DNA of 64,000 nt from Candidatus Woesearchaeota archaeon (lineage in GTDB: Archaea; Nanobdellota; Nanobdellia; SCGC-AAA011-G17; GW2011-AR18). Location: contig CAYFPK010000001.1 of NCBI GenBank assembly GCA_964344975.1, positions 15,485 to 79,484 of the forward strand. The letters are read 5' to 3'. The notes below the pieces were generated by a model. That model had not been told where the DNA came from. It did no database searches and saw nothing but the letters and a program-made list of their open reading frames with translations. The translations under genes were made by a program, and so were the position numbers. Shown piece after piece: positions 1-64,000 of the stretch; the stretch's first letter is position 1; the number at the start of each line of letters is the position of its first letter.

Positions 1-328
1 AAATAACACTAGAGAGGCTAGAAAAAACCAACATAGAAAAATACCCTAGCAATACGCTTGTTGATTACTACGATATTATACACAAACTACTAGAGGCAAC
101 AACACTCCAAGAAGGAACAAAGATAAAAGGAGAGGGTGCACACAAAGAACTCATAGACTACTGCGCAAAAAAGATACCACTAACAGAACAAACTCGCCAA
201 TTCTTACAGAGATTACGAGATTACCGAAACAGGATAGCCTATGAAGGTTTTATGGTTCGAGCAGAATTTATTAAAACAAACAACAAAGAGATCAAGAAGA
301 TTATCAAAGAGATACTAGAAAAATGGTA
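1..328 (+). CDS. HEPN-domain protein, C-terminal part (the gene starts upstream of the window)
   Basis: Open frame from the window edge to TAA at 326-328. The C-terminus reads ...FLQRLRDYRNRIAYEGF..., an R-x-N-R-x-x-[HY] HEPN-like motif. The same motif type recurs in ORF 9270..9698 (RKIRNKINYYG). Confidence 0.45.
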
Positions 329-387
329 ACAAAGAGAACCATATGGTTTCCAAAAAGTTCAAATAGTCTTAAAAGGAAAAGAAAATA

Positions 388-1386
388 ATGAAAAAAATAC
401 AACAAACTGCAATCGTGGCAAGCGCAATTATCGCAGCAGCGCTAGTCTTCATTCTCCTAGGACAAGGAGCAAGTACAGGATTCGCAGTAGTAGACACACA
501 AGCACAACAAGCTTTACAGCAAATAGAACAAGATATTACAGAATTAGAGCAAGTAGGGCTAAGCACAGCATACGTAACAGACCTCTATGAAGAAGCACAA
601 AGAGCGTTCCAAGGAGAAGATCTACAATCACTACAAATACGGGCAAAGTTTCTCAACAAGACAGACCCACAAACCGCGCAAGAACTCTTTACGCTTGCAG
701 AAGAGTTAGCAAAAGGAGACAGTAAAGTTGGAGAAGACTACAACAAAGTTTTAGAGATCCAACAAGAGGTACGAGCACATAAAGAGCAAGCCTTAGCTCT
801 TTTTGACGAACTCCACCTTGCAAAGGCACAGATTGAGGCAGTAAACGATTCACAAGTAAACTTAAGCAACGTTTGGGACATCTACCTCACAGAAGAAGAA
901 AACTTTTACGGCGACCGGTTTGAGAACATTTCAGCCAACCTAGCAACAATTGAGGAAGAAATAATTCAAGCGCAACTAGAAGCCACACGTCTGCGAGTAT
1001 TGTACAAAGCCTCACAACGAACATTAAAGGCATTCATAGCAAGAAATTGGGCATTTATACTCTTAAGTCTTATAATTTTAGCAGCAGCAGCAGCAATCAT
1101 GAATAATGAATATATTATTAAAAAGCTAAAGAAAAAACAAAAAGAGAATCAACAAGAAGAGCGCATTCTACAAGAGCTACGCAAAAAAACACAAGAGGAG
1201 TACTACGGTAAAGGAACATTATCACGGAGAACCTATGAAGCAAGAAAAAAGAAGTACAAAGAACGTCAGCTACAAATAAAAGAGCAAGCACCAGTCATTG
1301 CAAGCAAGCTAGAAAAGAGAAGAACAAGTAGAAAATGGTACGCAAAAATAACAAAAAGCTTTATTAAACGAGAAAAAAAGAGCTAA
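388..1386 (+). CDS. hypothetical membrane-anchored coiled-coil protein
   Basis: N-terminal hydrophobic segment (IVASAIIAAALVFILLG), a long Q/E-rich coiled-coil region, a second TM (NWAFILLSLIILAAAAAIM) and a lysine-rich C-terminal tail. I recognise no catalytic motifs. Confidence 0.45.
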   Translation: MKKIQQTAIVASAIIAAALVFILLGQGASTGFAVVDTQAQQALQQIEQDITELEQVGLSTAYVTDLYEEAQRAFQGEDLQSLQIRAKFLNKTDPQTAQELFTLAEELAKGDSKVGEDYNKVLEIQQEVRAHKEQALALFDELHLAKAQIEAVNDSQVNLSNVWDIYLTEEENFYGDRFENISANLATIEEEIIQAQLEATRLRVLYKASQRTLKAFIARNWAFILLSLIILAAAAAIMNNEYIIKKLKKKQKENQQEERILQELRKKTQEEYYGKGTLSRRTYEARKKKYKERQLQIKEQAPVIASKLEKRRTSRKWYAKITKSFIKREKKS

Positions 1387-1389
1387 CAA

Positions 1390-3182: not shown

Positions 3183-4349
3183 ATGAAACTAAGATTCCAA
3201 TTATTGATATTGCTATTGGTTGTATCCATTATTCACATTATTTCTTTCACTTATCTTTCTTACACTGATACGGTTGATATATTGTTAGATGACAGTATCG
3301 AGGATCTAGAACGAGGTGTTTTTTCTAAGACCAAGGATGTAAACTTTTTTCTTTCTGGTGCTCAAGATGAGGTTTTGTTTCTAAGCCAATCTCCAATTCT
3401 TAATAAATTGGTTAATTCCAAAGACGAAAGTGATAAAGAATCACTAAAAGCAGATTTGGAGAAAGAATTTCTTTCGTTTCTAAAGAATAAGGATAAATAC
3501 CTTCAAGTAAGATATATTGATGAAGATGGTCAGGAAACCGTACGTATTGATAGAGGTGGTGGAACACCACTTATTGTTGATGAAGGATTACAAAATAAAG
3601 GAGATAGGTACTATTTCACCGATTCAATTAGTCTTAAAGAAGGAGAGATTTTTATCTCCCCACTAGACCTTAATATAGAAGAAGGAGTTATAGAAAACAG
3701 AGGAACGGAGGAAGAACCAGCCTATGTTCCTGTTATAAGATATGCAACTCCCATTTTTGATAAAGCAGGGAAAAACAGAGGAATTGTCATCACTAATCTT
3801 CATGCAGATGAGATGTTAAGTAATTTACAAAAAGGAGTTGTTGGGGACTTATTTTTGTTGAATAAGGAAGGATTCTACTTAACCCATCCCGATTATTATA
3901 AACAGTGGGGGTTTATGTTTGATAACGATGAGAAATTACAAAAAGATCATCCAGTAATAGCAGACAAATTACTTACCTCCAGCAACTTTTTTGAGTCCGG
4001 AAAACTCGTTGTTGTTGAAAACATTGAAGTAAACGAAGAAACATCTTGGGTTTTAGCAAATATAATCTCCAAAGATATTATTATAAATCCTGTGAAAAAA
4101 TCTGCTACCAAACTAATATGGATTGCAACAGTGCTAGCTGTTCTGATAACTATACTATCTCTTTATCTATCCCACACATTAACAAAACCAATAGAACTGA
4201 TAGCAAAGTTAAGTAGAGGAGAAAAAGGAGTTGATATTAAGAAGTTTAAGAAGAAGAATGATGAAATTGGTGATATGGCAAGAGCATTTAGCAGGATGAG
4301 CGCTAGTATCAAGTTTTTATCACAAGATGAAAAGAGTAAGAAAAAATGA
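3183..4349 (+). CDS. Cache-like sensor / TM / HAMP protein with no methyl-accepting signalling domain
   Basis: N-terminal TM (LLILLLVVSIIHIISFTYL), a ~270 aa extracytoplasmic domain with a Cache-like pattern, a second TM (IWIATVLAVLITILSLYL), then a HAMP-like segment (TKPIELIAKLSRGEKGVDIKKF...IGDMARAFSRMSASIKFL). The ORF stops right after HAMP. TATA-like ctttaaataa at 3149-3158, 24 nt upstream of the ATG. Coding strand is T-rich, unlike other plus-strand genes. Confidence 0.5.
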   Translation: MKLRFQLLILLLVVSIIHIISFTYLSYTDTVDILLDDSIEDLERGVFSKTKDVNFFLSGAQDEVLFLSQSPILNKLVNSKDESDKESLKADLEKEFLSFLKNKDKYLQVRYIDEDGQETVRIDRGGGTPLIVDEGLQNKGDRYYFTDSISLKEGEIFISPLDLNIEEGVIENRGTEEEPAYVPVIRYATPIFDKAGKNRGIVITNLHADEMLSNLQKGVVGDLFLLNKEGFYLTHPDYYKQWGFMFDNDEKLQKDHPVIADKLLTSSNFFESGKLVVVENIEVNEETSWVLANIISKDIIINPVKKSATKLIWIATVLAVLITILSLYLSHTLTKPIELIAKLSRGEKGVDIKKFKKKNDEIGDMARAFSRMSASIKFLSQDEKSKKK

Positions 4350-6817: not shown

Positions 6818-7900
6818 ATGTTACCACTCAAAAAAACAACAAATAAACTAAGCAATATACTTAAAAAGACAAAACAAGAAGAACCACTCATGATTAAGGT
6901 ACTCATTGTTGACGATTCTATGTTCATGCGCAAAATGATTGCCGACATTTTGGAAGAAGATCATAGAATAAAAGTTATAGCAACAGCAAAAAATGGTTTT
7001 GAAGCGTTAGACAAGATCCAACAGTTAAAGCCTGATGTAGTTACACTTGACCTTGAAATGCCAAAAATATCTGGCCTTGACACATTATACGAAATAATGC
7101 GTACCAACCCCACGCCAACAGTCATAATTTCTGCATATTCTCCGATGGGATCAAAAGAAGCAATCCTTGCACTACAATACGGAGCAATTGACATAGTAGA
7201 AAAACCATCAGGCCCCATTTCTATGAACATCAGCACGATCAAAGAACAAATACTTGCCGCAGTAAAAGCTGCAGCAAACGCTAACCCACAGCAAGTGCAT
7301 AAATTTATCAAAAAAAAGATAGCAAGAAAAATAAAAGTAAAAAAAGAGATAATTCTCATTGCAGCATCGTCAGGGGGCCCACCAGCCATTGAAAGCATTT
7401 TAAAAACGTTTCCCAAACGATTTCCAATCCCCATCGTGATACTGCAACACATGCCAAGACATTTCACAAAAGCCTTTGCCGAACGCCTCAACCGTGTCTG
7501 CCATATAGCAGTAAAAGAAGCAGAGGACAACGAAAAACTCTGCAACGGCCAAGTATATATAGCCCCTGGTGGCAAGGATTTAACATTTGAAAAAAAAGTT
7601 ACCTCGGTCCGGATAAGGTTAACAGAGGCAAAGCAGCAGCTGACACCGAATATTGATACAACATTCAATTCAGCAGCACAAATATACAGAGAAAAAGTAC
7701 TTGCAATCATCCTCACTGGCATGGGTAGTGATGGAGCCCAAGGTGCACTACAACTAAAGAACAAAGGAGCACAAATACTCGCTCAAGATAAAAAAACAAG
7801 CACGGTGTTCGGTATGCCACAAGCAGTCGTCGCGTTAAACGCAGCTGACGAAGTAGTTTCTTTGCCAAACATGCCAGAAACAATGAATAAGTATTTATAA
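6818..7900 (+). CDS. cheB: chemotaxis response regulator protein-glutamate methylesterase CheB (receiver + methylesterase)
   Basis: Receiver domain (KVLIVDDSMFMRKMI...VVTLDLEMPKISGL). C-terminal methylesterase with the catalytic Ser in the AASSGGP context, plus ...HMPRHFTKAFAERL... and ...GMGSDGAQG.... The alternative ATG at 6890 (MIKVLIVDD) is a likelier true start. Confidence 0.75.
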   Translation: MLPLKKTTNKLSNILKKTKQEEPLMIKVLIVDDSMFMRKMIADILEEDHRIKVIATAKNGFEALDKIQQLKPDVVTLDLEMPKISGLDTLYEIMRTNPTPTVIISAYSPMGSKEAILALQYGAIDIVEKPSGPISMNISTIKEQILAAVKAAANANPQQVHKFIKKKIARKIKVKKEIILIAASSGGPPAIESILKTFPKRFPIPIVILQHMPRHFTKAFAERLNRVCHIAVKEAEDNEKLCNGQVYIAPGGKDLTFEKKVTSVRIRLTEAKQQLTPNIDTTFNSAAQIYREKVLAIILTGMGSDGAQGALQLKNKGAQILAQDKKTSTVFGMPQAVVALNAADEVVSLPNMPETMNKYL

Positions 7901-7922
7901 GAGAAAAGGAAGAAAAAGAAAG

Positions 7923-8609
7923 ATGGAAATAGCAAAACTGTACAAAAAAGAGTGTGCAAATTGTCTGCAAGTCATCAAGGTCACAGTAACAAAAATAAAG
8001 AACAAAAAAGGCAACAAGCAAACATTCGCGAACTTACGCAGAGCAGCACATACCTTAAAGAGTAGTTCTCTACAAATGCAATATTATAGCATGGGGTACC
8101 TCGCGCAACAGTTAGAGGATATCGCAAGATTATTGGCAGAAAAAAAGATAAAACCAACAAAAAAGATAGTTGCATTTCTCCACGATTTTTCAACAACGAT
8201 TGGGAAAGTAGAAAAAGCAATTCAAAGCAAAAAAACCCCTCAGATCAAGCCAGAACTCATCAAAAATTTAGACAGTATCCTTGGAAAAGCCCAAGAAAAG
8301 GGCTTCACAAAGGTTAAAAAGTTAAAAGAAACAGACGATTTAGAAAAAATTTACAAAGAAGAAACCAAAAAAGCAATTAACATGTTACTAACAGACATAG
8401 AAAGAGTAAAAAGAGAAAGCGACCTAGACCTCTTCATAGAAACAACCAACAAAGATTTAAAAAAAGAGATAGAAAGAATCGACGCAAAGATAAATTTAAA
8501 GATTGGCAAATACAACAAAGAAAACTTGGTAATAAAGGAAATAGAAAAAAACCATATTATCCTAAAAGGAGTAGATATATTTTATGAAAAAAATAAATTT
8601 TTTGACTAA
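7923..8609 (+). CDS. stand-alone HPt (CheA-P1-like histidine phosphotransfer) domain protein
   Basis: LRRAAHTLKSSSLQMQYYSMGYLAQQLEDIARLL matches the HPt/CheA-P1 phospho-histidine helix (aHtlKGss...G...lE). The rest is a K/E-rich coiled-coil. No kinase catalytic domain. Confidence 0.55.
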   Translation: MEIAKLYKKECANCLQVIKVTVTKIKNKKGNKQTFANLRRAAHTLKSSSLQMQYYSMGYLAQQLEDIARLLAEKKIKPTKKIVAFLHDFSTTIGKVEKAIQSKKTPQIKPELIKNLDSILGKAQEKGFTKVKKLKETDDLEKIYKEETKKAINMLLTDIERVKRESDLDLFIETTNKDLKKEIERIDAKINLKIGKYNKENLVIKEIEKNHIILKGVDIFYEKNKFFD

Positions 8610-8742
8610 AATCTATGCAAAATGCTCCAACAACACTAGACAAAATAAAGGCCTTAGAAAAAGTACCAAAAAACAGCTACAAGAGACCAAAGCGAAAACT
8701 ATTTAAACAAGTGTCCAATAAAATAGACAAAGAAACAAAAAA

Positions 8743-9273
8743 ATGGACAGCATAGCAAAACACTTCTACAAAGAACCTCAAAGAGAGTTCCACATAAGAG
8801 AATTAGCAAAAATAACAAAGAAATCCCCTTCAACAGTAGCAAAATACCTTCAAAAATGGGCAAAAGAAGGACTGTTAAAAGAAAAAAAGCAATACAACCA
8901 CAAGATATACAGAGCAAACACAGAAAGCGAAATATTCAAAGAAAAAAAAAGACACAATAATCTGCTCAACATAAGAAAATCAAACCTAATAGAGCACCTC
9001 AACAAGACATACAATCATCCCGAAGCAATCATCCTTTTTGGTTCATACGCAAAAGCAGAAAATACACAAAGAAGTGACATAGATTTACTTATAATCACAG
9101 AAAAGAAGAATAAAGAAGACCTTAAAAAGTTCGAAAAAAAACTAGAACACAACATACAAGTATTTACAAAAACAAAAAAGGAAATAGAAAAAACGAAAAA
9201 AGAAAATAAAGAGTTACTAAACAACTGGGTAAACGGTATAACCTTAAGTGGTCATTGGGAGTTATTTGAATGA
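8743..9273 (+). CDS. nucleotidyltransferase (MNT-type) with N-terminal wHTH
   Basis: GS-x9-DxD nucleotidyltransferase motif (ILFGSYAKAENTQRSDIDLLIIT). Confidence 0.6.
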   Translation: MDSIAKHFYKEPQREFHIRELAKITKKSPSTVAKYLQKWAKEGLLKEKKQYNHKIYRANTESEIFKEKKRHNNLLNIRKSNLIEHLNKTYNHPEAIILFGSYAKAENTQRSDIDLLIITEKKNKEDLKKFEKKLEHNIQVFTKTKKEIEKTKKENKELLNNWVNGITLSGHWELFE

Positions 9274-9698
9274 GATTCAAAAATTTTATAGAGAGTGGTC
9301 AAGTCAGAAAAGGACAAAAAGATATATCTCTAGCAAAATCACTTGTAAAAACTGCAAAACAAGATTTAGTATATTTACAAACAGTAAAAATAGATAAGGA
9401 ATCTGCAAGAAAAACAGTTACAAATTACTATGACACTTTACGAAGTTTACTCGAGGCAGAAACTGCCCTGAAAGGATACAAGGTATATTCCCATGAAGCC
9501 TTTACGTATTATCTAAAAGAGAAAGGAGAAGAAAATTTTGCAATAAAATTTGACAGGTTTAGAAAAATTAGAAACAAAATAAATTATTATGGCCAAGAAA
9601 TATCACCAGAGGAAGCAGAAGAATATTGTAAAAAAATCCAGAAATTTATTAAAGAAAAGATAGGACAAATAAACCTAGAAAGAAAAAATGCCCGTTAA
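9270..9698 (+). CDS. HEPN-domain protein (partner of the preceding nucleotidyltransferase)
   Basis: ATGA overlap with the upstream nucleotidyltransferase. Helical, with RFRKIRNKINYYG, a HEPN R-x4-6-H-like motif. Confidence 0.5.
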   Translation: MRFKNFIESGQVRKGQKDISLAKSLVKTAKQDLVYLQTVKIDKESARKTVTNYYDTLRSLLEAETALKGYKVYSHEAFTYYLKEKGEENFAIKFDRFRKIRNKINYYGQEISPEEAEEYCKKIQKFIKEKIGQINLERKNAR

Positions 9699-10587
9699 CC
9701 CAGGAATAGATTTCCAACTAGCCGAAGAAGAGTACAAAAACGCTTCAACGACCTTAGACAAGATTAAAGGCCTAGAAAAGATGTATAGGACTTGTCCCAA
9801 ACATAAAGGTTCAGAAAAATTATTACAGCAAATAAAAACAAAACTCACTAAACTCAAAGCCCAAGTTGAAAAACAAAGACAAACCAAAAAAGGCGGCGGA
9901 CATTCTATAACCGTTAAACGTGAAGGCGCAGCGCAAGTAATTTTTATGGGCACAACTAATGTAGGAAAAAGTACATTATTACAAGAACTCACTAACGCAA
10001 AACCAGACATTGCAGAGTACGAATTCACAACAACCATGCCAGAGGTGGGCAGCATGAACTACCACGGAATTCAAATCCAGTTAATAGAACTACCAGCGAT
10101 TCATGAAGGCTACGCAGATAAAGGCAACGGGCCGGCGTTTATGGCCATTGCAAGAAACGCAAAACTCATAGTAATAATCTTAGATGGAGAAAAACCATTA
10201 GCAAAACAATTAAGATTAATAAAAAAAGAATGCGACAACAGCTTTCTCAACATTGACAAAGCAATCATTACGATAACAAAAAAGTTCAAACGACCAAAAA
10301 CTAAACTACAGTTAGTTAAACCAAAACACCTCAAAGAAGCTATTTGGAAAAACCTCAACTTCATATACGTATTCACTAAACAACCACAAAAAGATAAAGA
10401 CTGGCCACCGGTACATCTCAAAAAAGGAAGTACAATTAAAGACTTAGCAAGTATAGTCCATAAAGATTTTCTAAAAAAATTCAAATTTGCAAAAGTGTGG
10501 GGCAAAAGCGTCAAACACAACGGCACCAATGCAGGACTCGACCATGTGTTAAAGCAAGGTGACGTGATAGAACTACACCTCAAATAA
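9688..10587 (+). CDS. DRG-family (Obg-like) GTPase with C-terminal TGS domain
   Basis: N-terminal KKGGGHSITVKREGAAQV then G1 GTTNVGKST, G2 FTT, and ELPAI. C-terminal TGS-like GDVIELH. The pattern matches developmentally regulated GTP-binding proteins. Confidence 0.7.
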   Translation: MPVNPGIDFQLAEEEYKNASTTLDKIKGLEKMYRTCPKHKGSEKLLQQIKTKLTKLKAQVEKQRQTKKGGGHSITVKREGAAQVIFMGTTNVGKSTLLQELTNAKPDIAEYEFTTTMPEVGSMNYHGIQIQLIELPAIHEGYADKGNGPAFMAIARNAKLIVIILDGEKPLAKQLRLIKKECDNSFLNIDKAIITITKKFKRPKTKLQLVKPKHLKEAIWKNLNFIYVFTKQPQKDKDWPPVHLKKGSTIKDLASIVHKDFLKKFKFAKVWGKSVKHNGTNAGLDHVLKQGDVIELHLK

Positions 10588-13668: not shown

Positions 13669-13669
13669 C

Positions 13670-52557: not shown

Positions 52558-55502
52558 AGCGTTTCAACTTCTTCTGTATCAACATCTTCTAACTCAGAAA
52601 AACTACGTTCACCTTCACCAACTTCAACAGTGTCTTCTTCTAAAGAAAGTTCAGGTAAACGCTCATCAGTTACATCCAACCAATCATCTGGTTTTTGCAA
52701 CTGCATGGCATATCGATCAAGAAATTCATGGCGCAGATAATAAAGACTAGTAGCATCTTTATCTGTACTACCAGTAAAGTTTTGAATAGTTTTTAGAGCA
52801 AGCCCATATTTAGCCATTGAAAAAACATGTACAAACGAATCCATAAGCGTCTTAAAACGTGGAGTCAACAAAGAATCAAGGTCAAGACCATACATGACAG
52901 AAAGATCAACAAATGAGGAAAGATGCTCAAAAGCCTCAACAACGGCACTTTCTACTGAAGAGATTTGTAAAAGAACAGTATCCACTGCACGATGTTGTTC
53001 ATCAGTAAGTGCAACACCATCTGTATAGCGCTTAAGCAGACGTCGCAACTTCAAAAACAAAACCTTTTCCTCATCCAAAAGATGTGCAGCATCTAAGATA
53101 GGCGCTGGAGATGTAGAAAGGCGCACATCAAACGGCAAAGAAAGAGCAAGTTCTGCACCAGAAGAATCAAAACCTCTCGCAATAAACGAAAGGACAAGTT
53201 CATCTGAAGGTTTGTAATGCAATTCTAAACCTTCACCAACTTTTTCAACAAAATGCTCCGAATCTGTAGTCCACCATTCCACACGAGCAACATTTTTCGG
53301 AACACCAGTAACATACAAATAGATTTCATCTAAAAGCGAAGCATAAGGTTTACCAGCAACAACCAATTCGGGCAAAGTCACAGCAATAGGACTAACAGAA
53401 AAAAGTAATCGAGTAAAAACTTTTTCACCTAATGAATCTTGCCCCCGGACAAGAAGCTCTTTACGACCAGGCACATGCGGCGTATACAAAAAATCAGCAC
53501 CAACAGTCAGATTTTGAGGAAAAGAAAAGTCACTTGTACGAGAAGCAACATCATAAATATCAACAGAAACAAGGTTTTCCACAAGAGGTCGAGAAGAGCT
53601 AACAGAAAAAACAACAGATTCATCAACAGCTAAACTTGCAGGAAAATTATGTACAACCAAATCAGCAACAGGCGCAGCGCCAACAGTAACCGCCCCCACA
53701 GCAGAACCTAGAAAAGCACCAGACACATGGTACGCCTCAGCACGTAACGTGACCTGTTGACCAGTTAAAGAATCAGCAAATTGATAGACAGCAACAAGAT
53801 CTCCTGCAACAGCAGCATCCTCTGGCAAAGCAGCAACTTCTCCTGAAGCATCAACATACGACCATGTAACAAACGCAGGTGCAGGCCCAGATTTCACTAA
53901 AAGGTGTACAGACAACTCCTCTCCTGCAGCAACAGCATCCTCAGAAACAAGATGATAGATAGGAAGTTCATCAACGGCAGTTAGAATTTGACGCGCAATC
54001 ATAAAATACTGTCCAGCATAACGAACATAGACATACAACGTGTACCTTCCTTCATCATGCAAGCGAAAAGAAACAGGAGAAGAAACTTGCACAGGGCCAA
54101 CAGCATCAGCCACAGCAAACTTTGAAGCAACAAGTTCATCAAAAGTAGACGAGCTCACTGCATAGTAAACATCATACAACGCCGTCGTGTCCACTGCATA
54201 AGAGACATCTGTGTTACAAGCAACAACAGCAGGCCCTTCTATGGTAACAGCAATATCTGCAGGGTGACGTAAAACTGTAATAGGAAACGAAAGTTCATCA
54301 ACAATACCATCCAAGGTATGCAATCGTGCAACTAAACGGTTTGCAGCTAAAGCTTCACCACCCAAAACAAGATCTACAACTATGCCGGCAACATCTTGCG
54401 CAACAACATCATCTAAATCAATAAAGTGTCCAGAAATTTCATATCCCCACAAAACATGCTGTACAGCAAAAGGATCGCCAAAAAAATCTACTGACCAACG
54501 TGAAGGTGAACCAACAAACAAAATGTTAGACCCATCATCCGGCGTTACAGAGAGTAAGAAAGGTACAAAAACAAGCGGCAATTCAATAGCAGAGTCATAA
54601 AGTGGGTGTGTTGCATCAACACAGGGAACTAAACGCACAGAGGTATAATCAACAAGTGCAGAGCGAGAAAAAGTAACAGCACCGTCTCCAACAGGGTAAG
54701 TCATTGCAGAACTCGTAAAGGATCCATCACTAGACAAAAAATCTACGCGAATAAAAGCAACATCAGAATCCGCAAAGGACTGATAAGCTAAAGTAACTTC
54801 TTCACGGTCAACACGCAACTCCTGCTCATCAACAAACAGATGAAACCGCCGCTCATAAGAAAAATCGCGAGAAACTGAAGCTAAAACCACATCACCACGA
54901 GAAAGAACTTCAACAACAATTTGTCCAGAACTTCCAACAACAGCAGTAGGTTTCCAAACTAAAACAACGTCACGCTGTGGGCGATCTAAAGGCAAAAGTT
55001 GCATAAGGGTACGTTTATTAGCAACGACCTGATACAAAGCAACAGAGGCAACATCTTTAAGCGAACCTGCTAAATGAATAGGGATAGAGATTTGATCACG
55101 ACTCATAATCTGGTAGGTTTCATCTGTAGCTGCAAAGGAAGCATCAATAGTAACAACTAAAGGCGCAGAAACAGTAGGCGCAGAAACAGGCTGCGGTTCC
55201 TCACGAGGAAAGTGTAAAGCAATGGGAGTAATTTTAACTAAAGATGCATCAGATTTTTTTTTAGCAATTAAAAAAAGAGTTGCATCATCATACTGGTTAT
55301 AAAAGTCAGTAACATCACAAGCTAAAGCAGGAAGCACATCAGAACCAAATCGATGCGGCTCAAGTTTATCTTCAGTAATAGCAATAGCTTTGTCCAAGTC
55401 AGCATCAACATCAAAACGATCAAGGTCCCCGGGCAAAACCAAATAAAAAAAATCAAGGTCAGAATGTAAACGTATAGAACGGTAATATATTTTAGGATTC
55501 AT
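52554..55502 (-). CDS. giant uncharacterized protein D (982 aa), last gene of a four-gene coupled operon
   Basis: No recognisable domain, signal peptide or TM. Predicted beta-rich, repetitive V/A/S/D-rich segments. Acidic C-terminal tail (...EDTVEVGEGERSFSELEDVDTEEVETL). ATG overlaps the stop of gene C (ATGA at 55499-55502). Confidence 0.55.
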   Translation of the reverse strand: MNPKIYYRSIRLHSDLDFFYLVLPGDLDRFDVDADLDKAIAITEDKLEPHRFGSDVLPALACDVTDFYNQYDDATLFLIAKKKSDASLVKITPIALHFPREEPQPVSAPTVSAPLVVTIDASFAATDETYQIMSRDQISIPIHLAGSLKDVASVALYQVVANKRTLMQLLPLDRPQRDVVLVWKPTAVVGSSGQIVVEVLSRGDVVLASVSRDFSYERRFHLFVDEQELRVDREEVTLAYQSFADSDVAFIRVDFLSSDGSFTSSAMTYPVGDGAVTFSRSALVDYTSVRLVPCVDATHPLYDSAIELPLVFVPFLLSVTPDDGSNILFVGSPSRWSVDFFGDPFAVQHVLWGYEISGHFIDLDDVVAQDVAGIVVDLVLGGEALAANRLVARLHTLDGIVDELSFPITVLRHPADIAVTIEGPAVVACNTDVSYAVDTTALYDVYYAVSSSTFDELVASKFAVADAVGPVQVSSPVSFRLHDEGRYTLYVYVRYAGQYFMIARQILTAVDELPIYHLVSEDAVAAGEELSVHLLVKSGPAPAFVTWSYVDASGEVAALPEDAAVAGDLVAVYQFADSLTGQQVTLRAEAYHVSGAFLGSAVGAVTVGAAPVADLVVHNFPASLAVDESVVFSVSSSRPLVENLVSVDIYDVASRTSDFSFPQNLTVGADFLYTPHVPGRKELLVRGQDSLGEKVFTRLLFSVSPIAVTLPELVVAGKPYASLLDEIYLYVTGVPKNVARVEWWTTDSEHFVEKVGEGLELHYKPSDELVLSFIARGFDSSGAELALSLPFDVRLSTSPAPILDAAHLLDEEKVLFLKLRRLLKRYTDGVALTDEQHRAVDTVLLQISSVESAVVEAFEHLSSFVDLSVMYGLDLDSLLTPRFKTLMDSFVHVFSMAKYGLALKTIQNFTGSTDKDATSLYYLRHEFLDRYAMQLQKPDDWLDVTDERLPELSLEEDTVEVGEGERSFSELEDVDTEEVETL

Positions 55503-56878
55503 CTAAACCAATCATCCTCCGAATCACCAGAAAAGTTTACATCTTCTTTGCCCGCAAAAATATCGGCATACGGATCCGCAGAGACTGCAGGTTCAGGTGA
55601 AAGTTCAGCAGGAGCAGTTGCAACTTCAGGCTCAGCTGCAAGCTCACTTTCACCAACTTTTACCTTAGGCTCATCAGTAATAGTAAACGTGTAACTGCGA
55701 TGTGCAAGATCTTTTCGTTCCCCAGAAGAAGAGATTCGTGAAAGGTAAACATCCAAAGTGACCTCTGAAAACTCAGCAAAGAGATCGAAATGATCAAAAA
55801 GCGAAGGGTTCTCATTATCAAAAAGAGACAAAACATCGCCTGTTGCAGAACTTTTCCAACTAAATTGTAAGTCTGGAGCAAGTACTGCCCGCTCAACATC
55901 CGTAAGACCTTGTATGGAGAAATAAAGCCAAGCATCAGCAAGATCAGATCGGGCAACAGTATATTGCATATGTTTACGCAAACCTTTACGAACCATACGA
56001 CCATCAACATGACGCATAGAGCTTAAAGAAAAGTCCAGCTTTAGTTTCGGCGCTGCAAACCTAAGCGAATATTGTTCAAAGAAAAGTTCATCAGAATGAT
56101 CAACATACTCTTTTTTATCTTTAGGTAAAACAACAAGATAAAGCTTGGGTGAATCAATAGAACTAAAATGCACATCAAGACCTGTCTTAGCAAAAGAGCG
56201 CTGCAGATCAGAAGAAGAGACATAGTAAAGAACATCATCACGTGAACGTGTACAAGCAACATAAGAGGATGAATGGCTAGTAGAGCTTTGAATACGAACA
56301 AAAACAGAGTAATCTTTAGGTTTAGCTTTAACAAACTTAAAGGCAATGCGAAAATCTTCAGGGTTTGTAACAGTAAAAGATACAGCTTTACGCCAGTTAG
56401 GCTCAGCAGAAACATTCTTAGAATATTTTTTAATAAAATTCAAGCCAAACCCATCAGGCAAGGTTGGTTTTTCTTGAGCAGGAGACTTTAAAGAAGAAAG
56501 TTCTTCATCATCAAGAATTTTTTCTCGAGCAGGTGCATGAGTAGACTCATCTATAAGTTCCTCAGGTTTTTCAGGACGCGTAGCAGCAACATAAAAATAA
56601 TCATAAAAAGCCCGACCACTCTCTTTATCTTGCAGTAACACACACACTGTCGCCATAGGGTAGTCCTTAAATGCTAGAGCAGAACAAGTAGAGGCATCAA
56701 AGTCAAAAATATAAACAGTTTTCCGAATTCTATAAGCAAAAAAAGAGGGATACTTTTTTTCTGCAAAAATTTTAGGAATTCTTGAAGCAACAAGAAATCC
56801 AGGGTAAATACAATAAGAGACAGAATCAGGAGCAACAACATCCTTAGGAATAGCCAAACGGATATATCGCCAGCTCAT
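55499..56878 (-). CDS. uncharacterized protein C (459 aa) of the coupled operon
   Basis: No motif. Acidic and aromatic C-terminus (...NFSGDSEDDWFR). ATGA overlaps at both ends (56875-56878 and 55499-55502). Confidence 0.55.
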   Translation of the reverse strand: MSWRYIRLAIPKDVVAPDSVSYCIYPGFLVASRIPKIFAEKKYPSFFAYRIRKTVYIFDFDASTCSALAFKDYPMATVCVLLQDKESGRAFYDYFYVAATRPEKPEELIDESTHAPAREKILDDEELSSLKSPAQEKPTLPDGFGLNFIKKYSKNVSAEPNWRKAVSFTVTNPEDFRIAFKFVKAKPKDYSVFVRIQSSTSHSSSYVACTRSRDDVLYYVSSSDLQRSFAKTGLDVHFSSIDSPKLYLVVLPKDKKEYVDHSDELFFEQYSLRFAAPKLKLDFSLSSMRHVDGRMVRKGLRKHMQYTVARSDLADAWLYFSIQGLTDVERAVLAPDLQFSWKSSATGDVLSLFDNENPSLFDHFDLFAEFSEVTLDVYLSRISSSGERKDLAHRSYTFTITDEPKVKVGESELAAEPEVATAPAELSPEPAVSADPYADIFAGKEDVNFSGDSEDDWFR

Positions 56879-58686
56879 TTTTTCTCGTCCTCCAACAAAT
56901 ATGCAATATCAGCTGACTCAGGCTCATCTAAAAATACAAAACGGTTTTCATCAACACCTAAAACCGCAAAATCTTCAGCACGACCAACAGGCGGAGAATC
57001 AATAGATTCGCGATCAGCTTCAGACTCATCAACAACTGGCGGTTCAACTTCCTCTTCAGGAATTAAAGAAGAAAAGTCAGGACTCTTGGAAAAATCAAAT
57101 CTAAAAAAAGCAGAGTTCTCATCACAAGAATAACGAATCGACTTAGGCATCGCTCCCGACTTCGTTGCAATAGGACCTAAAGCAATAGGGGTTTGAAAAC
57201 GGTCAGGCCTTCTTTCAGGGCCAGAGGTACCTTTAGCAAAGGGCAAACGCCAAAAAGAGATTGTTTTTCCCTCAAAAGCAGGATAAAAACTAAGACGAGT
57301 AGAACGGTATGAAGAAAAAAGATCAGTAACAAACCGAGAGGTAAAAAGAAACCTTCCATCTTCAGAAAAAGGTTCTCCTGAGTAGGAATTTCCAGCATAA
57401 AGATTGCAGGAAAAACCAACAGGAAAATCAGAAAGATTCGCAATAGTTGCAACAACGGGTTGTGAAGAGTACGGTTTATTTAATAGGACATAGTAATAAT
57501 AAATTTTTGGATCAGGACCACTAAGAAGTCTATCCAATAAAGAATCTCTCGGAGCAAGTGTTTTCACAACTGGATAGTTCAGCAAGATTTTCATCACAGG
57601 CATCTTCGGCATAGGGTCAGTTAACACCAAATAGTTCCAACCAACAATATCACCATGAGTTTTCTCACGGCCACTCACCACAACACAAAGTAACGTAAAC
57701 GTTTTAGGGTAAGGTTTTTTAAGCCGTTCACGATAATTACAATCCCACTCCAAAGAAGTTCCAAGACCCACAGGTTTACGTTTACCACGATACACTTTTG
57801 CAACATCCTTAAGCGTCAACGCCTTTTTGCCACGCACAACATACCACAAGACTGTCGCTTTCAAAGGTACATCACGCGCAGCAACCTCTAAAGTTGTATC
57901 GGTTAAAGGCAACAGCCCCTTGTGCAAATCAGAACCCACAAACGCAGCAGTATCAACAGGAGACATAATATGCACACGGGAAACTCCACGGGAAACTTCT
58001 TCTCCAGGTACTTCTTCAGTTGGAGGTTCAGGCGTAGAAAGAGGAAGTAACGGGTCAAATCTAAACAAGAACTCAGAGGTAGTCAAAAGATGTTTATCAG
58101 AGTAACGAAGAAGTGAAGCATCTAAGCGAACAACATCTGCACCATCTCCAAGTTCATCACAGATAAAATGGCTCAGCACAAGTAAAAAAGAACCATCTTC
58201 TTGAGCAACCAAAGTATGTGCAGCAAGAACAGCGCTGGTAAAAAGAAATGCACGGCCATCTTCAGTAACAAGAGAAACCTCCAATTCATAGTCTTGAAGC
58301 CGTTCCCCAGAAAGTTTAAAGGCAATCTTGGCATCATCCACACGAGTTCCATCAAAAAGCAGTACATCTTTGCGAAAACCAAAGGCACCTTCCTTGGCAA
58401 AACGCAGGTGAGCACAAAAGTTAGGATCAATATCAACTCCAAGAGATTCAGCAATCTCCTCTTCATCCACAATTTCAACAGGCACTTCTACAGGCACGTG
58501 AAACGAAAACAACACAGGCGCAGTAACAGCAATTTGTTCACCACCCACATCATAAAGTTCAGCAGAAATCTCATACTCTCCAGAAGATACCATCTTACTT
58601 AAAGCAACAAACTCAGAGGTAAAATCATAGGTAAAGTCATCACCCGCAGCAGGTTCCAAGATAAATCCTTTCTTAAACTTCTTCAT
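56875..58686 (-). CDS. uncharacterized protein B (~603 aa) of the coupled operon; longest ORF extends to 58746
   Basis: ATG at 58686 (MKKFKKGFILEPAAGDD...) overlaps the TGA of gene A (ATGA at 58683-58686). No motif. Acidic C-terminus. Confidence 0.55.
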   Translation of the reverse strand: MKKFKKGFILEPAAGDDFTYDFTSEFVALSKMVSSGEYEISAELYDVGGEQIAVTAPVLFSFHVPVEVPVEIVDEEEIAESLGVDIDPNFCAHLRFAKEGAFGFRKDVLLFDGTRVDDAKIAFKLSGERLQDYELEVSLVTEDGRAFLFTSAVLAAHTLVAQEDGSFLLVLSHFICDELGDGADVVRLDASLLRYSDKHLLTTSEFLFRFDPLLPLSTPEPPTEEVPGEEVSRGVSRVHIMSPVDTAAFVGSDLHKGLLPLTDTTLEVAARDVPLKATVLWYVVRGKKALTLKDVAKVYRGKRKPVGLGTSLEWDCNYRERLKKPYPKTFTLLCVVVSGREKTHGDIVGWNYLVLTDPMPKMPVMKILLNYPVVKTLAPRDSLLDRLLSGPDPKIYYYYVLLNKPYSSQPVVATIANLSDFPVGFSCNLYAGNSYSGEPFSEDGRFLFTSRFVTDLFSSYRSTRLSFYPAFEGKTISFWRLPFAKGTSGPERRPDRFQTPIALGPIATKSGAMPKSIRYSCDENSAFFRFDFSKSPDFSSLIPEEEVEPPVVDESEADRESIDSPPVGRAEDFAVLGVDENRFVFLDEPESADIAYLLEDEKK

Positions 58687-60908
58687 GGACGTTTTCCCCC
58701 AAAAGGCCACCAACCCTTTTTTTTCTTGGCAGGTCGCACATGCCACACAATGCGATCAACACGGTCAGCCACTTCACCAGGCTCTAAGCGAGCAACAACG
58801 GGACCTCCAGCAGTTACTTCAGCAGGCATATCCAAATGAACAACAGGCAAAGGTGTAGCTTCATCAGAGGTTTCTGCAAGTATAGACAAAAAATAATCCT
58901 CTGAAGACAAAATGGAGCGATCGTACTCAACATCCGCATCAGGCGCAAAGACTTTGAAAAAGAAAAGATAAGGTTTCCCAAAAGCAGGCGGATATTCAGA
59001 AGAAAAATGGCGGCGAAGTTGAGAAAGATCAAAAAGATAGGATCCATCATCCTCCATAAACATACCGGGAAAAAGAGTGGTACCATCCTGAGATCTAAAG
59101 AGAAGTGAAAGTTGATAAGGTATAAAATCCTTTTTTTGCAACTGTAGTCCAAGATGTAGTGGTACAGATGAATGAAAATCAGCAAAAGAGATTCTAAATT
59201 CATAAGGGGTACGCCAAGAAGGTGTAGAAATACCCGAGGATTTATTTTTCAAAAAGCGAAATTTAAAATCCTTTGGTAGAGTAGGAGGTCCATCCGCTTC
59301 AGGCTCTTCAGGACTAACTCCTTCACCTACAACTTCAACAAAAATAAGGTCATAATTAACACGCTCACCAGCATCATCATAACCTGCAACAGCAACCGTG
59401 TAAAGGTTCGAATCAAGCGGAGGAGTAGAAAAAGTAGTTAAGACTCCTCTTGCAGAGGGTCTAACAGAAATATGATCAAAAGAAACATATCCTGGTACAA
59501 TACTCCAACCAGAAGAAACAACTGAAGAACCAAATAGTGCACTAAAAGTCAACTCAGTATTTGCCGGAACTTGCACAAAGTTTTTATCTTTTCTAACTTT
59601 TATTTTAAACTCTTTCCAATCAGATCGCGCAGCAACAATCCTCACAGAAGTAGCTCGAGCAGCTTCACCCAGTTCAGCATCTTCATCTTTGCCTCGCCGC
59701 CACTTTCGCTTTAAACGTTCCCACCAATTAAGACCTTCATCCTCAGGCTTAACCTCTTCAGGTTCAGGAAGAATAGGAGCAACAGTATCATTAACAATTT
59801 GAACACCATGCACACCTGATGACGCTTTTGCGCCAGTCTCAGTATCGGTACAGGTTACTTCTAAACCAAGGTTCATGCGTTGCCCAGGCCGCAACCCATA
59901 ACGTGCAAGATCTAAGGTAATCGAATCTAAGTTCGGACCAGCAAAACGTTGTGGATAATTTTTCACACGCCACTTAAACTGATAAATACGGCCAGGTTCT
60001 CCACCTTGCACATGAGCAATGAGACGCAACGTAGGACTAGCTGAAATTCGTACAGGGTCAATGGCAGGCTCATGATGAAGTATAACAGTAAATGAAGCAC
60101 GTGGCGTTGATCTAAAAAGCCCACCGAATTTTTTAAACGGCCAAAGAGCAAGACCACCAAGTCCTTTTGCAGCACCCCAGCCAAGACCACCAACACCTTT
60201 AGCAGCGCCCCAACCTTTATCGCCAGTCCACTTAGCAGCTCCCCAACCTTTATCGCCAGTCCACTTAGCAGCACCAACACCTTTATCTTTTCCAGAAGAA
60301 GAAAGGCGACCAAGACCGTGCCAAAAACCTTCCTTAGCACCATCTTCACCAGCACCATACGCAGCAACACGATCTTTAGTACCACGTAAGATATGAATTA
60401 ATAATAGCAACCCTAAGAGTAAAGCTACAGGAAGCAAAAATTCTGCAGGGATAGGTATCCAATAAAACAACTGCGGGTACCACAGATAGCCAACAAGTAA
60501 AGCAGCAAGTAAAATGCCAATAAGGTACATCCCCGACCCATGCGTTTTATCTTTAACCAAGTGATACAAAAACCCAACAGCAATGATACCTAAGAAAACT
60601 AACACAAACGGACCAATGCTAAAAAGTGAAAACCCTTGATAAATTTCCCAGGTAACAAGTGCAAGTGAACATACTAGCCCAAGTGCAAAAGCAAGGTTCT
60701 TTGAAGTTTTACCATCACCACCCACTAACGGTTTGAGGGCAACATCAAAAAGTAAAGACAAAACAAGAAAGGCAACAAAAAAATCGAGCCAACCGTAATA
60801 ATCATAATACAAATCTAGAGGAGTAAAAACAACAGCAGAAACTAAAGGTAAACAAAGTAGCAACAGAGCAAAAACTAGCAAAAACCTACCTCTTTTTAGC
60901 ACAAACAT
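58683..60908 (-). CDS. polytopic membrane protein A (~741 aa; longest ORF extends to 61121) with W/G-rich tandem repeats, first gene of the coupled operon
   Basis: From ATG 60908: MFVLKRGRFLLVFALLLLCLPLVSAVVF..., about 8 TM helices in the first ~230 aa. Then GKDKGVGAAKWTGDKGWGAAKWTGDKGWGAAKGVGGLGWGAAKGLGG (exact 33-bp tandem duplication at 60208..60273). Then a ~450 aa hydrophilic beta-rich domain. Basic C-terminus. Start at 60908 is preferred because 61121 would overlap the divergent Trm5-like gene by 158 nt. Confidence 0.5.
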   Translation of the reverse strand: MFVLKRGRFLLVFALLLLCLPLVSAVVFTPLDLYYDYYGWLDFFVAFLVLSLLFDVALKPLVGGDGKTSKNLAFALGLVCSLALVTWEIYQGFSLFSIGPFVLVFLGIIAVGFLYHLVKDKTHGSGMYLIGILLAALLVGYLWYPQLFYWIPIPAEFLLPVALLLGLLLLIHILRGTKDRVAAYGAGEDGAKEGFWHGLGRLSSSGKDKGVGAAKWTGDKGWGAAKWTGDKGWGAAKGVGGLGWGAAKGLGGLALWPFKKFGGLFRSTPRASFTVILHHEPAIDPVRISASPTLRLIAHVQGGEPGRIYQFKWRVKNYPQRFAGPNLDSITLDLARYGLRPGQRMNLGLEVTCTDTETGAKASSGVHGVQIVNDTVAPILPEPEEVKPEDEGLNWWERLKRKWRRGKDEDAELGEAARATSVRIVAARSDWKEFKIKVRKDKNFVQVPANTELTFSALFGSSVVSSGWSIVPGYVSFDHISVRPSARGVLTTFSTPPLDSNLYTVAVAGYDDAGERVNYDLIFVEVVGEGVSPEEPEADGPPTLPKDFKFRFLKNKSSGISTPSWRTPYEFRISFADFHSSVPLHLGLQLQKKDFIPYQLSLLFRSQDGTTLFPGMFMEDDGSYLFDLSQLRRHFSSEYPPAFGKPYLFFFKVFAPDADVEYDRSILSSEDYFLSILAETSDEATPLPVVHLDMPAEVTAGGPVVARLEPGEVADRVDRIVWHVRPAKKKKGWWPFGGKRP
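60150..60290. repeat. 33-bp tandem repeats inside membrane protein A (encodes the KGWGAAKWTGD units)
   Basis: Unit ccccaacctttatcgccagtccacttagcagc(t) occurs as two exact adjacent copies (60208..60273), flanked by degenerate copies. Confidence 0.7.
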
Positions 60909-61944: not shown

Positions 61945-61971
61945 AGAAACTACTACTAACAAAGAGTAACA

Positions 61972-62358
61972 ATGCCTTTAACAGATATCACTCAAGGACT
62001 TTTAGGAACCGCAATGATTGCTAGCGCAATTACAGCAGCAGTATTCGCATATCAAGGCTGTAATAGAAGTGAAGCCGAAGAGCTAGGCATCACAGTATGT
62101 CCAAACGGCATTTATTTAGCAAACGGTCACTGGGATCCACAATCCGACTATTTTGAAGTACGAGACGTAGGTATCGACATCAATGGTAACCCGGTTGAGC
62201 AAGGAACATACCAATTTCCAAAAGACAACGTCTTAGTTGGTCTTGACCTTGAACGTTGTGAATTTCGAAGTGCTGAAGATATGTACGAAGGACACTTAAC
62301 ACCGTTCGTTTTACAAGCACAACCAGACGGTTCATTGCAAAAAATAACAAGACCTTAA
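61972..62358 (+). CDS. small N-terminally anchored protein with a Cys pair
   Basis: 128 aa. Hydrophobic N-terminus (LLGTAMIASAITAAVFAY), then a hydrophilic domain with 3 Cys. Confidence 0.35.
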   Translation: MPLTDITQGLLGTAMIASAITAAVFAYQGCNRSEAEELGITVCPNGIYLANGHWDPQSDYFEVRDVGIDINGNPVEQGTYQFPKDNVLVGLDLERCEFRSAEDMYEGHLTPFVLQAQPDGSLQKITRP

Positions 62359-62448
62359 AAACTAAAACAACTTCTAATCATCGAGGGATGATTTAGTGAA
62401 CACCCGCGGATCCTTTCAGGAGATGACGGACGGTAGTAGCTGATGACC

Positions 62449-64000
62449 TCACAATCCTAATTTTTCAAAGGCAGAACCTTTTGCTTTAACAGCAACAGGA
62501 GCATCAGCACCATGCCACGTTTTTCGAGGATGAATTTGCAGTGGATACATTTTCTCAGCAGTATCATCTAAGACCAAAGCAGCCCCTTTCATACGCGGCA
62601 ACATATCAAAATATTTCTGAATCTGCCCTGGCAAATATGAATGCATCATCGCATTCAAAGCAGCAATGTCACGTTTAGAAGTTAAACGGTGTGACAACAC
62701 TATGTCAGTTTGCGTAATAACATCGGTATGAATCTCACCGGGCTGTTGAGTCGCTAAAACTAAACTCACACCAGGCTGACGCCCTTCACGAAGCACCTGT
62801 ACTAACGCATCCGTTGCAGGCGTCACCGCATCTTTAGGTAAAAACTCATGGGCTTCATCGACAAGCAACCAGACCAAAGGCATCTGCGAACCTACAGCCC
62901 CCATTTGTGAAGAAAAATACGAATGACCACGTTGCACATCATCAAGTTCTTCAACTTTACGATGCGCCATACGCTGTTGCATTAACTTACGAGTTAAAAG
63001 CCCAACGACCAAACTTTTTATGTTCCAATCAGCATAACAACTCACATCAAGAATACTCACCTTACCGCCAGCAACAATCTCAACTAAAGGCGTAGCATCA
63101 ACAGAAAAAATTCCCCAAGACGCAGCTGCAGAAAATCTGTTTTCACAGGCTAAACGCAGCGAAGCAGTTAATCGCGTGTCAGCACGAACAGCGGCAAGTA
63201 AATCACTTAAATCATACACATCTTTTCGAGAAGAAACGCTTCGTACAACACGATCAAGCGCAATACCCAAATCAGAGAACAGCGTTACACCAAACACCCC
63301 ACACCAGTCGGAGCTAGATAGTTCACTTGGTAAAATCGTAAAAGGCGCATCAACAGGAATCCCTGCCTCTTTTTGTGAAGTAAACGCACCTGCAGGGGTA
63401 TACAACGTCACATCAAGACCCTGCGCACGTAACCCCCACTCATCAAGCAAATCTTCTTGTTTGACGTTAGGATACTTCATGGTCCAAAACACCCCCATGG
63501 TATCAAAAATTAACACGGCAATTTTTTCTTTAATCTCAGCATCTAGAGAAGAGATTTCTTCAGCTATTGCAGCTAAGGTGTAAGAATTATGAACAATAAT
63601 ATCATTTGCAACAAAGTTATGAGTCTCAGGAACACAAAAATCATAAACCTCAAATTCACCGTCAAGATATTCTAAAGAGACAATCTCATCCCAAAAAATG
63701 TCTGATTGAGCAAGCTGTGCGATCGCAGGTTGGTTATCAGCAAGAGCAATTTGTAGCAACGTTTGCCTATGTGGTGCATAGCGAATTCTTTCACGCATGG
63801 CCTTGGGGTGCGCATAACCCATAGCACGTCCAACTGCAGCCCAATTAGCAGGCCTATACAAATCCCAAATACCTTTCGGAATAGTGTCAATATTTGAATT
63901 AGAAGCAATTTTAGCTAAATCAGCCAGACAACGTTGAGCTTTCTGCTTTTTGGCACCATAAAACCCGATTTCTTCAATAAACTTCTCACGACTTTCGGAC
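62449..64000 (-). CDS. HerA/FtsK-superfamily (DUF87-like) P-loop ATPase interrupted by an intein; 5' end lies beyond the window edge
   Basis: The reading frame is open from 64000 with no stop. Residues ...DIFWDEIVSLEYLDGEFEVYDFCVPETHNFVANDIIVHN|S are the canonical intein C-terminal splicing block (HNFxANxIxVHN followed by +1 Ser), placing the intein/C-extein junction near 63586. The C-extein carries Walker B and downstream motifs (LVWLLVDEAHEFLP, ...LVLATQQPGEI...). Upstream in-window sequence (KFIEEIGFYGAKKQ...) is consistent with a homing-endonuclease region. Confidence 0.6.
   Translation of the reverse strand, partial: SESREKFIEEIGFYGAKKQKAQRCLADLAKIASNSNIDTIPKGIWDLYRPANWAAVGRAMGYAHPKAMRERIRYAPHRQTLLQIALADNQPAIAQLAQSDIFWDEIVSLEYLDGEFEVYDFCVPETHNFVANDIIVHNSYTLAAIAEEISSLDAEIKEKIAVLIFDTMGVFWTMKYPNVKQEDLLDEWGLRAQGLDVTLYTPAGAFTSQKEAGIPVDAPFTILPSELSSSDWCGVFGVTLFSDLGIALDRVVRSVSSRKDVYDLSDLLAAVRADTRLTASLRLACENRFSAAASWGIFSVDATPLVEIVAGGKVSILDVSCYADWNIKSLVVGLLTRKLMQQRMAHRKVEELDDVQRGHSYFSSQMGAVGSQMPLVWLLVDEAHEFLPKDAVTPATDALVQVLREGRQPGVSLVLATQQPGEIHTDVITQTDIVLSHRLTSKRDIAALNAMMHSYLPGQIQKYFDMLPRMKGAALVLDDTAEKMYPLQIHPRKTWHGADAPVAVKAKGSAFEKLGL

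Follow-up and report, generated by a model that had tools for sequence, protein, structure and literature searches.

Strand asymmetry that follows the chromosome strand rather than gene direction in a 64-kb segment of a Woesearchaeota genome

Strand-specific mutational bias splits both codon and amino-acid usage in Borrelia burgdorferi, other spirochaetes, Chlamydia, Buchnera and Lawsonia (McInerney 1998; Lafay et al. 1999; Rocha et al. 1999; PMC2671203; PMC2031905). In nearly all bacteria the leading strand is the one with an excess of G + T (PMC2031905; PMC3269012), and the largest phylum means among 185 bacterial chromosomes, -0.075 for the AT component (sigmaA^R) and +0.096 for the GC component (sigmaG^R), are both those of the spirochaetes (PMC2031905 Table 1). 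Animal mitochondria have one G+T-rich and one A+C-rich strand (PMC3269012), and in insect mitochondria the polarity reverses when the replication origin is inverted (PMC2939890). Among archaea, Pyrococcus, Halobacterium NRC-1 and the DPANN archaeon Ca. Forterrea show cumulative GC skew of the bacterial type (PMC7111523; PMC5905446; PMC3269012), and the skew-predicted origin of Forterrea lies beside cdc6 (PMC5905446). The present analysis concerns a stretch of 64,000 nucleotides, referred to below as the window, from the genome of a Candidatus Woesearchaeota archaeon (assembly GCA_964344975.1, contig CAYFPK010000001.1, positions 15,485 to 79,484), in which the plus strand is enriched in A and C whatever the direction of the genes it carries. 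No report of strand skew in Woesearchaeota was found in the searchable literature, which is itself incomplete.

The same DNA occurs in 13 contigs that two assemblers built from three samples, each a run of metagenome project PRJEB17505, and that match the window at 99.6-100%. Gene calls and Pfam matches were taken from the public assemblies that hold it, not from raw open reading frames (ORFs). The mapped genes, 48 on the plus and 30 on the minus strand, all translate cleanly, and only 46% of coding bases are co-oriented with the minus strand, proposed below to be the leading one. Well-supported plus-strand genes include FtsY, SRP54, L21e, S13, S4, S11, TruD, topoisomerase IA (TopoIA), CDC48, FEN1, Trm5 and CheB; those on the minus strand include Pelota, eIF2-alpha, L44e, PAC2, GINS51, ApgM phosphoglycerate mutase, two vWA/BatA proteins, RadB and an M24 peptidase. 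The window yielded no rRNA gene and a single tRNA gene, which presumably bears an intron.

The plus strand contains 25220 A (39.4%), 13770 T (21.5%), 13475 C (21.1%) and 11535 G (18.0%), giving an AT skew of +0.294 (58 standard deviations off parity) and a GC skew of -0.078 (12 standard deviations). In one-kb bins the AT skew is positive in 64 of 64 (range 0.06-0.48) and the GC skew negative in 51 of 64. Over all codon positions, the GC skew of plus-strand genes is close to zero because G at first positions cancels the bias; the C excess thus shows in raw counts only over minus-strand genes and at silent sites. Third positions of plus-strand genes have frequencies of A.48, T.19, C.21 and G.12, and those of minus-strand genes, counted along the coding strand, T.51, A.20, G.20 and C.09; the AT skew of these minus-strand coding sequences is -0.22. 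Expressed on the plus strand, the mean AT skew at third positions (AT3) of genes of at least 100 amino acids is +0.445 for plus-strand and +0.433 for minus-strand genes (t-test, p = 0.69), and the mean GC skew at third positions (GC3) is -0.29 and -0.34, respectively (p = 0.19). AT3 is above zero in 60 of these 62 genes. At third positions the strand effect is +0.44 for AT and -0.32 for GC, against orientation effects of -0.02 and +0.04; over all codon positions a small orientation effect appears (sigmaA^T +0.06, sigmaG^T +0.08). The skew therefore follows the chromosome strand, not gene direction. A preliminary description of this DNA had claimed A and C enrichment of the plus strand under genes of either direction and a bias tied to the chromosome strand rather than to transcription. 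Both claims are borne out, with a plus-strand A+C content of 60.5% rather than about 50%, and the counts by sliding window and codon position that it proposed give a skew that does not track gene orientation.

The asymmetry is greatest at the sites under the weakest selection. Four-fold degenerate sites (n = 8569) have plus-strand frequencies of A.554, C.197, T.154 and G.096, that is, an AT skew of 0.565, a GC skew of -0.342, 75% A+C and 65% purines. The minus strand at these sites is accordingly 65% pyrimidine, 35% purine and 75% G+T, the G excess lying on the same strand as the T excess. The AT-skew strand effect rises from 0.12 at second and 0.26 at first to 0.44 at third positions and 0.565 at four-fold sites, and intergenic DNA has an AT skew of +0.33. 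Since the bias is strongest at four-fold sites and is present in intergenic DNA, it is mutational in character. Counts of di- and trinucleotide contexts gave no diagnostic mutational signature. When the window is divided into eight 8-kb bins, the skews at four-fold sites remain at 0.46-0.64 (AT) and -0.25 to -0.41 (GC) in all of them, with no gradient along the 64 kb (r = 0.02 and -0.04). The sign is also unchanged in public contigs that extend the window by 1.65 kb on the left (L086) and 6.8 kb on the right (L092), so that the total of about 72 kb shows no polarity switch.

Relatives were sought through CDC48, whose best matches (55-69% identity, among the best 80 loci of a GTDB scan) lie in metagenome-assembled genomes labelled Woesearchaeota, Nanoarchaeota and Pacearchaeota, all DPANN; loci are cited below by their L numbers. 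Three of them, L033, L017 and L021, form a tight group in which CDC48 is 86-88% identical (88% between L033 and L017). In L033 and L017, six syntenic genes agree in order and relative orientation, with amino-acid identities of 61-88%, and the silent-site skew is opposite in sign for all six. For CDC48, AT3 is -0.62 in L033 and +0.58 in L017, and GC3 is +0.39 and -0.38; genes on the other strand flip in the reverse sense. Six genes with opposite polarity in an otherwise conserved block imply that the skew is not a property of the genes, their transcription or their neighbours, and is set by the orientation of the block in the chromosome. The comparison of opposite-strand orthologs in relatives that the preliminary description had suggested thus gave a clean positive result, in a clade related to the window's own lineage. 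In every one of the six pairs the index of amino-acid composition is higher for the copy on the A-rich strand, and the differing residues lie in the predicted direction in 187 cases and in the opposite one in 139 (p = 0.009). Silent sites have fully re-equilibrated after the flip, and the proteins are only starting to follow.

In each related locus the skew was split into a strand effect and an orientation effect. The strand effect is at least 0.2 in AT3 or GC3 in 27 of 68 related loci, and the AT3 and GC3 strand effects are correlated across the 68 (r = -0.73): the A-rich strand is the C-rich strand. By AT3 strand effect the window ranks third, after L033 (-0.55) and L018 (+0.48). The balance between the two components varies among relatives, L139 being skewed in AT only and L131 mainly in GC. 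L097, a sister species that comes from a different project and whose Pelota is 58% identical, shares synteny, polarity and strength of skew with the window, with AT3 between -0.36 and -0.62 in all 13 genes when read in the orientation of Pelota. The bias is stable over long evolutionary time and reversible by inversion. In a 3.5-kb contig (L098; CAZAFK010000092.1, 1-3490) carrying orc1 and DNA ligase, third positions are 62% T, 30% G, 5% C and 3% A. This composition, with a T3+G3 of 92%, is more extreme than that of the window, and all genes lie on one strand, so that strand and orientation are inseparable there.

The two strands of the window have distinct codon preferences. Plus-strand genes use GCA for 71% of Ala, AGA for 56% of Arg and ACA for 61% of Thr codons, and minus-strand genes GCT for 55%, CGT for 53% and ACT for 43%, respectively; TTC accounts for 42% of Phe codons in plus-strand and 6% in minus-strand genes. 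Amino-acid usage differs in parallel: pooled plus- versus minus-strand genes contain 12.1 vs 5.6% Lys, 4.4 vs 2.0% Asn, 8.3 vs 4.5% Ile, 5.4 vs 9.9% Val and 4.2 vs 7.8% Ser. However, strand is confounded with function, as many membrane and secreted proteins are encoded on the minus strand, and single proteins were therefore compared with their own orthologs. Pelota, on the minus strand, is the most composition-shifted of 119 orthologs (index z = -4.7 against the 118 others), with 5.7% Lys (ortholog mean 12.4%), 2.0% Ile (9.0%) and 14.0% Val (6.8%). RadB and the M24 peptidase, on the same strand, have the lowest index among their orthologs (0 of 8, z = -2.2, and 0 of 24, z = -3.5). Six plus-strand proteins, TopoIA, FEN1 and CDC48 among them, each have an index above the mean of their orthologs (z = +0.6 to +2.0). 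SRP54, also on the plus strand, has the second highest index of 119 (z = +2.3), mostly through Thr (7.4 vs 4.0%), with Gly, Ser and Val reduced; in Lys it matches the mean of its orthologs (14.1% vs 14.0%). Across relatives, amino-acid drift of CDC48 with skew was not significant (r = 0.21); CDC48 is too conserved to respond, and faster-evolving orthologs were used in its place for the amino-acid test. Pelota itself is about 40% identical to its orthologs, barring a 99% copy from the same organism and the 58% relative, and CDC48 and SRP54 are 65-75% identical to theirs; the divergence of Pelota may be driven by composition.

The amino-acid effect is thus real and lopsided, with minus-strand proteins strongly and plus-strand proteins mildly shifted. 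The T/G-rich strand codes for proteins with more Val, Ser, Phe and Leu and less Lys, Ile, Glu and Asn. Of the two amino-acid classes announced by the preliminary description, the difference within the window stands and the Lys-rich tracts of FtsY, S11, S13 and ORF 388-1386 are present, but the Lys, Glu, Asn and Gln richness of plus-strand genes was overstated. Their high Lys content is mostly the baseline of a Lys-rich lineage, as SRP54 illustrates, and the strongly abnormal class is that of the minus-strand genes. That translation genes follow the strand on which they lie applies to Pelota and SRP54 but not to L44e, a minus-strand gene with an AT3 of -0.04 and 18.6% Lys.

A bias set by replication would be expected to change sign at origins, and loci carrying orc1/cdc6, taken as a likely origin marker, were examined in addition to the CDC48 loci. 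A change-point scan of 80 CDC48 loci revealed no convincing polarity switch. The orc1 gene of L074 led to 120 homologs, and three long-contig loci and 80 JGI loci were analysed; none of the skewed loci reverses at orc1/cdc6. Three loci have an orc1 that points the same way as CDC48 and precedes it by 7-9 kb (L034:135-12280, L074:1684-12283, L095:10001-21083), and no orc1 was found near CDC48 in the window. In L034 and L074 an ORF-gap scan detected an ORF-free gap of about 540-590 bp directly downstream of this orc1; for L095, the assembly gene calls leave about 670 bp at this position, and the same scan found no such gap. The sign is constant across orc1 in L121, L131, L139, L106, L164, L165, L167, L170, L096, L124, L126 and L109, and a long intergenic gap beside orc1 is lacking in most of these skewed loci. 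A constant sign would mean either that this orc1 is not linked to the origin in these archaea or that replication is not symmetric about it. One of these loci, L096 (a 939-kb contig, with 24% G+C over the 21-kb locus), carries a Cas12a (Cpf1) CRISPR-Cas system with Cas1, Cas2 and Cas4 beside orc1 (L096:2996-8659).

The explanation that we favour, with a probability of roughly two in three, is a long-lasting, transcription-independent and strand-specific mutation pressure on a DPANN chromosome, with the replication fork as the most likely polar process behind it. The pressure would act toward T and G on the minus strand, i.e. toward A and C on the plus strand. Silent sites are saturated by the bias, resulting in two codon dialects, and it leaks into first and second codon positions. 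Its direction would most likely be set by the passing replication fork. If G + T marks the leading strand as usual, the minus strand would carry the leading-strand sequence. An excess of G + T is found on the leading strand of single-origin archaea as well. With the minus strand leading, the fork would travel leftward through the window, and the nearest origin would be situated past its right end. The direction of coupling, in which the A-rich strand is also C-rich, matches that of replication skews (PMC2031905; PMC3269012). Cytosine deamination alone would be insufficient, because transitions keep purines at 50% and the minus strand is 35% purine at four-fold sites; judging from the base frequencies, asymmetric purine-to-T transversions would also be needed. 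Long single-strandedness could account for both, through deamination and through oxidation or loss of purines with A inserted opposite.

Several observations weigh against the involvement of the fork. No polarity switch was seen in the window, in its extensions or in the related loci, about 120 in number, so that we infer the replication link rather than observe it; in 12 skewed relatives the sign does not change across orc1/cdc6; genes show no co-orientation with the strand proposed as leading, and on this reckoning those for ribosomal proteins and the signal recognition particle would be lagging; and the AT component is about four times the largest bacterial phylum mean (0.285 vs 0.075; PMC2031905 Table 1), a size hard to reconcile with the brief single-strandedness of coupled forks. 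The preliminary description had proposed a replication- or repair-linked skew with the minus strand leading. Its mutational character stands, but the replication cause and the leading-strand assignment do not emerge from the data, given the missing switch in about 72 kb and the constant sign at orc1. However, the absence of a switch is weak evidence, as only about one origin or terminus is expected in that much strongly skewed DNA.

The missing switch would be accounted for if a single polarity extended over the chromosome or very long tracts through intrinsically asymmetric replication, either unidirectional or with delayed synthesis of one strand as in animal mitochondrial DNA (mtDNA). This is possible, although we consider it unlikely. 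The four-fold G+T of 75% on one strand has the same direction as the mitochondrial H/L asymmetry (PMC3269012), the polarity is unbroken over about 72 kb and across orc1 in 12 skewed relatives, and a more extreme relative exists in L098 (T3+G3 92%). Mitochondrial skews at four-fold sites look comparable in size to that of the window. Nevertheless, no gradient of skew runs along the 64 kb, though these are a small part of the genome; the sample would by chance include only about one origin or terminus, orc1 genes do not always lie beside origins, and another DPANN archaeon has an ordinary bidirectional skew (PMC5905446). The corresponding claim, that in some Woesearchaeota-like DPANN uncoupled, unidirectional or strand-displacement-like synthesis of the chromosome keeps one strand single-stranded for long periods, we regard as a little more doubtful still. 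If true, a mitochondria-like asymmetry would exist in a cellular genome without reversal at orc1, and Chargaff's second rule would be broken over very long tracts or a whole chromosome. Less probable than either is a replication-linked bias that arises from the error spectra or lesion handling of the strand-copying enzymes, or because a reduced genome has lost a repair pathway, rather than from extra damage to exposed single-stranded DNA. The transversion component (65% purines on the plus strand at four-fold sites) favours it, as does the AT/GC balance that differs between L139 and L131 and suggests lineage-specific enzymology, but the window encodes FEN1, GINS51 and an ExoIII-family nuclease.

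Explanations that do not invoke a polar process of the chromosome fare worse. Selection on codon usage, tRNA matching or a structural property of the DNA is very improbable and was rejected: complementary codon preferences on the two strands cannot both fit one tRNA pool, intergenic DNA is skewed too, and a whole syntenic block flips polarity between close relatives. Nothing specific speaks for it beyond the escape of L44e, a highly expressed small gene, from the skew. Transcription-linked bias or purine loading, by which the skew would track the coding strand, could draw on the small orientation effect over all codon positions, but minus-strand genes are T-rich on their coding strand (AT skew -0.22; T3 51%) and the plus-strand third-position skew is equal in both orientations (p = 0.69). 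The per-orientation counts refute it, and its probability is negligible. The same holds for an artefact of assembly or binning, or a mobile element in place of the chromosome, since thirteen contigs from three samples and two assemblers agree at 99.6-100% and the window carries ribosomal proteins, SRP54, FtsY, eIF2-alpha, Pelota, GINS and FEN1; the assembly artefact was likewise rejected.

These results extend strand-specific mutational bias from a few bacteria and organelles to a DPANN lineage, at a strength well beyond the phylum means that have been published for 185 bacterial chromosomes (PMC2031905 Table 1). They amount to a natural experiment on the extent to which proteins can be remodelled by mutation pressure alone, Lys and Val of Pelota changing two-fold and Ile more than four-fold by strand. 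The bias will affect composition-based binning, gene calling, measures of codon adaptation and phylogenies of these archaea. It could also be used for checks of assemblies and for locating origins in a group whose replication is unstudied, and the lack of a switch at orc1 poses a testable question about the replication mode of these cells.

Table 1. Segments and genes of the window, with position, strand and the values that bear on strand composition.
Feature	Position	Strand	Values or basis
Uninterrupted asymmetry, plus strand A/C-rich, minus strand T/G-rich, no switch or gradient	1..64000	.	Base counts, third-position and four-fold skews
dCache sensor gene, local exception, no silent-site skew	3183..4349	+	AT3 0.00, GC3 +0.03
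Gene run: CheB, Hpt, NTP-transferases, DRG GTPase, FAD oxidoreductase, toxin-antitoxin pairs	6818..15285	+	AT3 +0.33 to +0.76
Small ORF within the preceding run	11579-11851	-	Gene call
Pelota, T/G-rich strand	15282..16364	-	AT3 on plus strand +0.54; index z = -4.7
PAC2, eIF2-alpha, T/G-rich strand	22167..23877	-	AT3 on plus strand +0.32, +0.38; Val 10-12.5%
L44e, local exception without AT3 skew	24054..24347	-	AT3 -0.04
PKD-domain protein, local exception without AT3 skew	24518..25273	+	AT3 -0.02
Exo_endo_phos nuclease, PNP_UDP, GINS51, ApgM, hypotheticals	25270..30207	-	AT3 on plus strand +0.34 to +0.54
TruD, FtsY, SRP54, L21e, Rpb4, DUF655, S13, S4, S11, A/C-rich strand	30258..37144	+	AT3 +0.36 to +0.65
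SpoIIM, two vWA/BatA, intron-bearing tRNA, DoxX, DsbA-like, MarR	37141..44353	-	AT3 on plus strand +0.25 to +0.53
Mixed block: TopoIA (+), RadB (-), two small ORFs (+), CDC48 (+), small ORF (-), M24 peptidase (-), FEN1 (+)	44501..52557	.	Ortholog composition test
Four consecutive overlapping large ORFs (982, 459, 603, 741 aa), no Pfam match	52554..60908	-	AT3 on plus strand +0.42 to +0.50

Among the 62 genes of at least 100 amino acids, those for the dCache sensor and the PKD-domain protein are the only two with an AT3 of 0 or below (Table 1), and they may be recent acquisitions; L44e may be under codon selection. The dCache sensor belongs to a chemotaxis-like set at 3183-8609, with a CheC-like protein, CheB and an Hpt-domain protein, in a genome of DPANN type. 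Toxin-antitoxin-like pairs (VapB/PIN, nucleotidyltransferase pairs, DUF3368/UPF0175) lie at 2338-3023, 8743-9698, 10660-11545, 11957-12537 and 13717-14501; the sister species L097 has none of them in its syntenic region. The tRNA gene (42595-42718, minus strand) is 124 nt long and presumably intron-bearing; it gives an Rfam match of 44 bits and was missed by ARAGORN. At the right end, 62449-64000 on the minus strand, continuing to about 65013 in L092, is an 854-aa ATPase-like gene split by an intein that contains a LAGLIDADG endonuclease domain. Between the window and the 13 contigs there are 87 differences, which were considered as a record of the mutation spectrum and set aside, as they are clustered and look like recombined strain variants. 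Fifty-two of them fall in a 210-bp patch at 54837-55047, inside ORF 52554-55502 (minus strand; 982 aa, no Pfam match); the patch looks like a strain-variable or recombined segment.

The window resembles the spirochaetes, Chlamydia, Buchnera and Lawsonia in that its skew is independent of gene direction and opposes a G+T-rich to an A+C-rich strand, with two codon-usage classes and an amino-acid difference by strand. Unlike those bacteria, in which a switch at oriC has been demonstrated, it is archaeal and no switch is seen. In the sigma notation of Chen and Chen (PMC2031905), with the minus strand taken as leading, its values are sigmaA^R = -0.285 and sigmaG^R = +0.083; compared with the spirochaete mean, the AT component is about fourfold and the GC component similar (0.083 vs 0.096). 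Like the H/L asymmetry of animal mtDNA, the window combines G+T and A+C strands with strand-dependent codon usage (PMC3269012; PMC2939890), and the L033/L017 flip parallels the reversal of mitochondrial polarity upon inversion relative to replication. However, it is part of a cellular chromosome and not of a 16-kb organelle genome, it has no gradient of skew, and the all-position AT skew of insect mtDNA takes its sign from gene direction, whereas that of the window does not. Pyrococcus, Halobacterium NRC-1 and Forterrea are likewise archaea with a chromosomal strand skew attributed to the direction of replication, and their skews are weak. Compared with these archaea, the skew of the window is extreme. 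Its relatives show no switch at orc1, in contrast to the predicted origin of Forterrea beside cdc6, and this contrast counts against the fork as the source of the skew, or at least not in its favour. The phenomenon is of a known kind, and differs from the described cases in host lineage, magnitude, dominance of A/T and the transversion signal.

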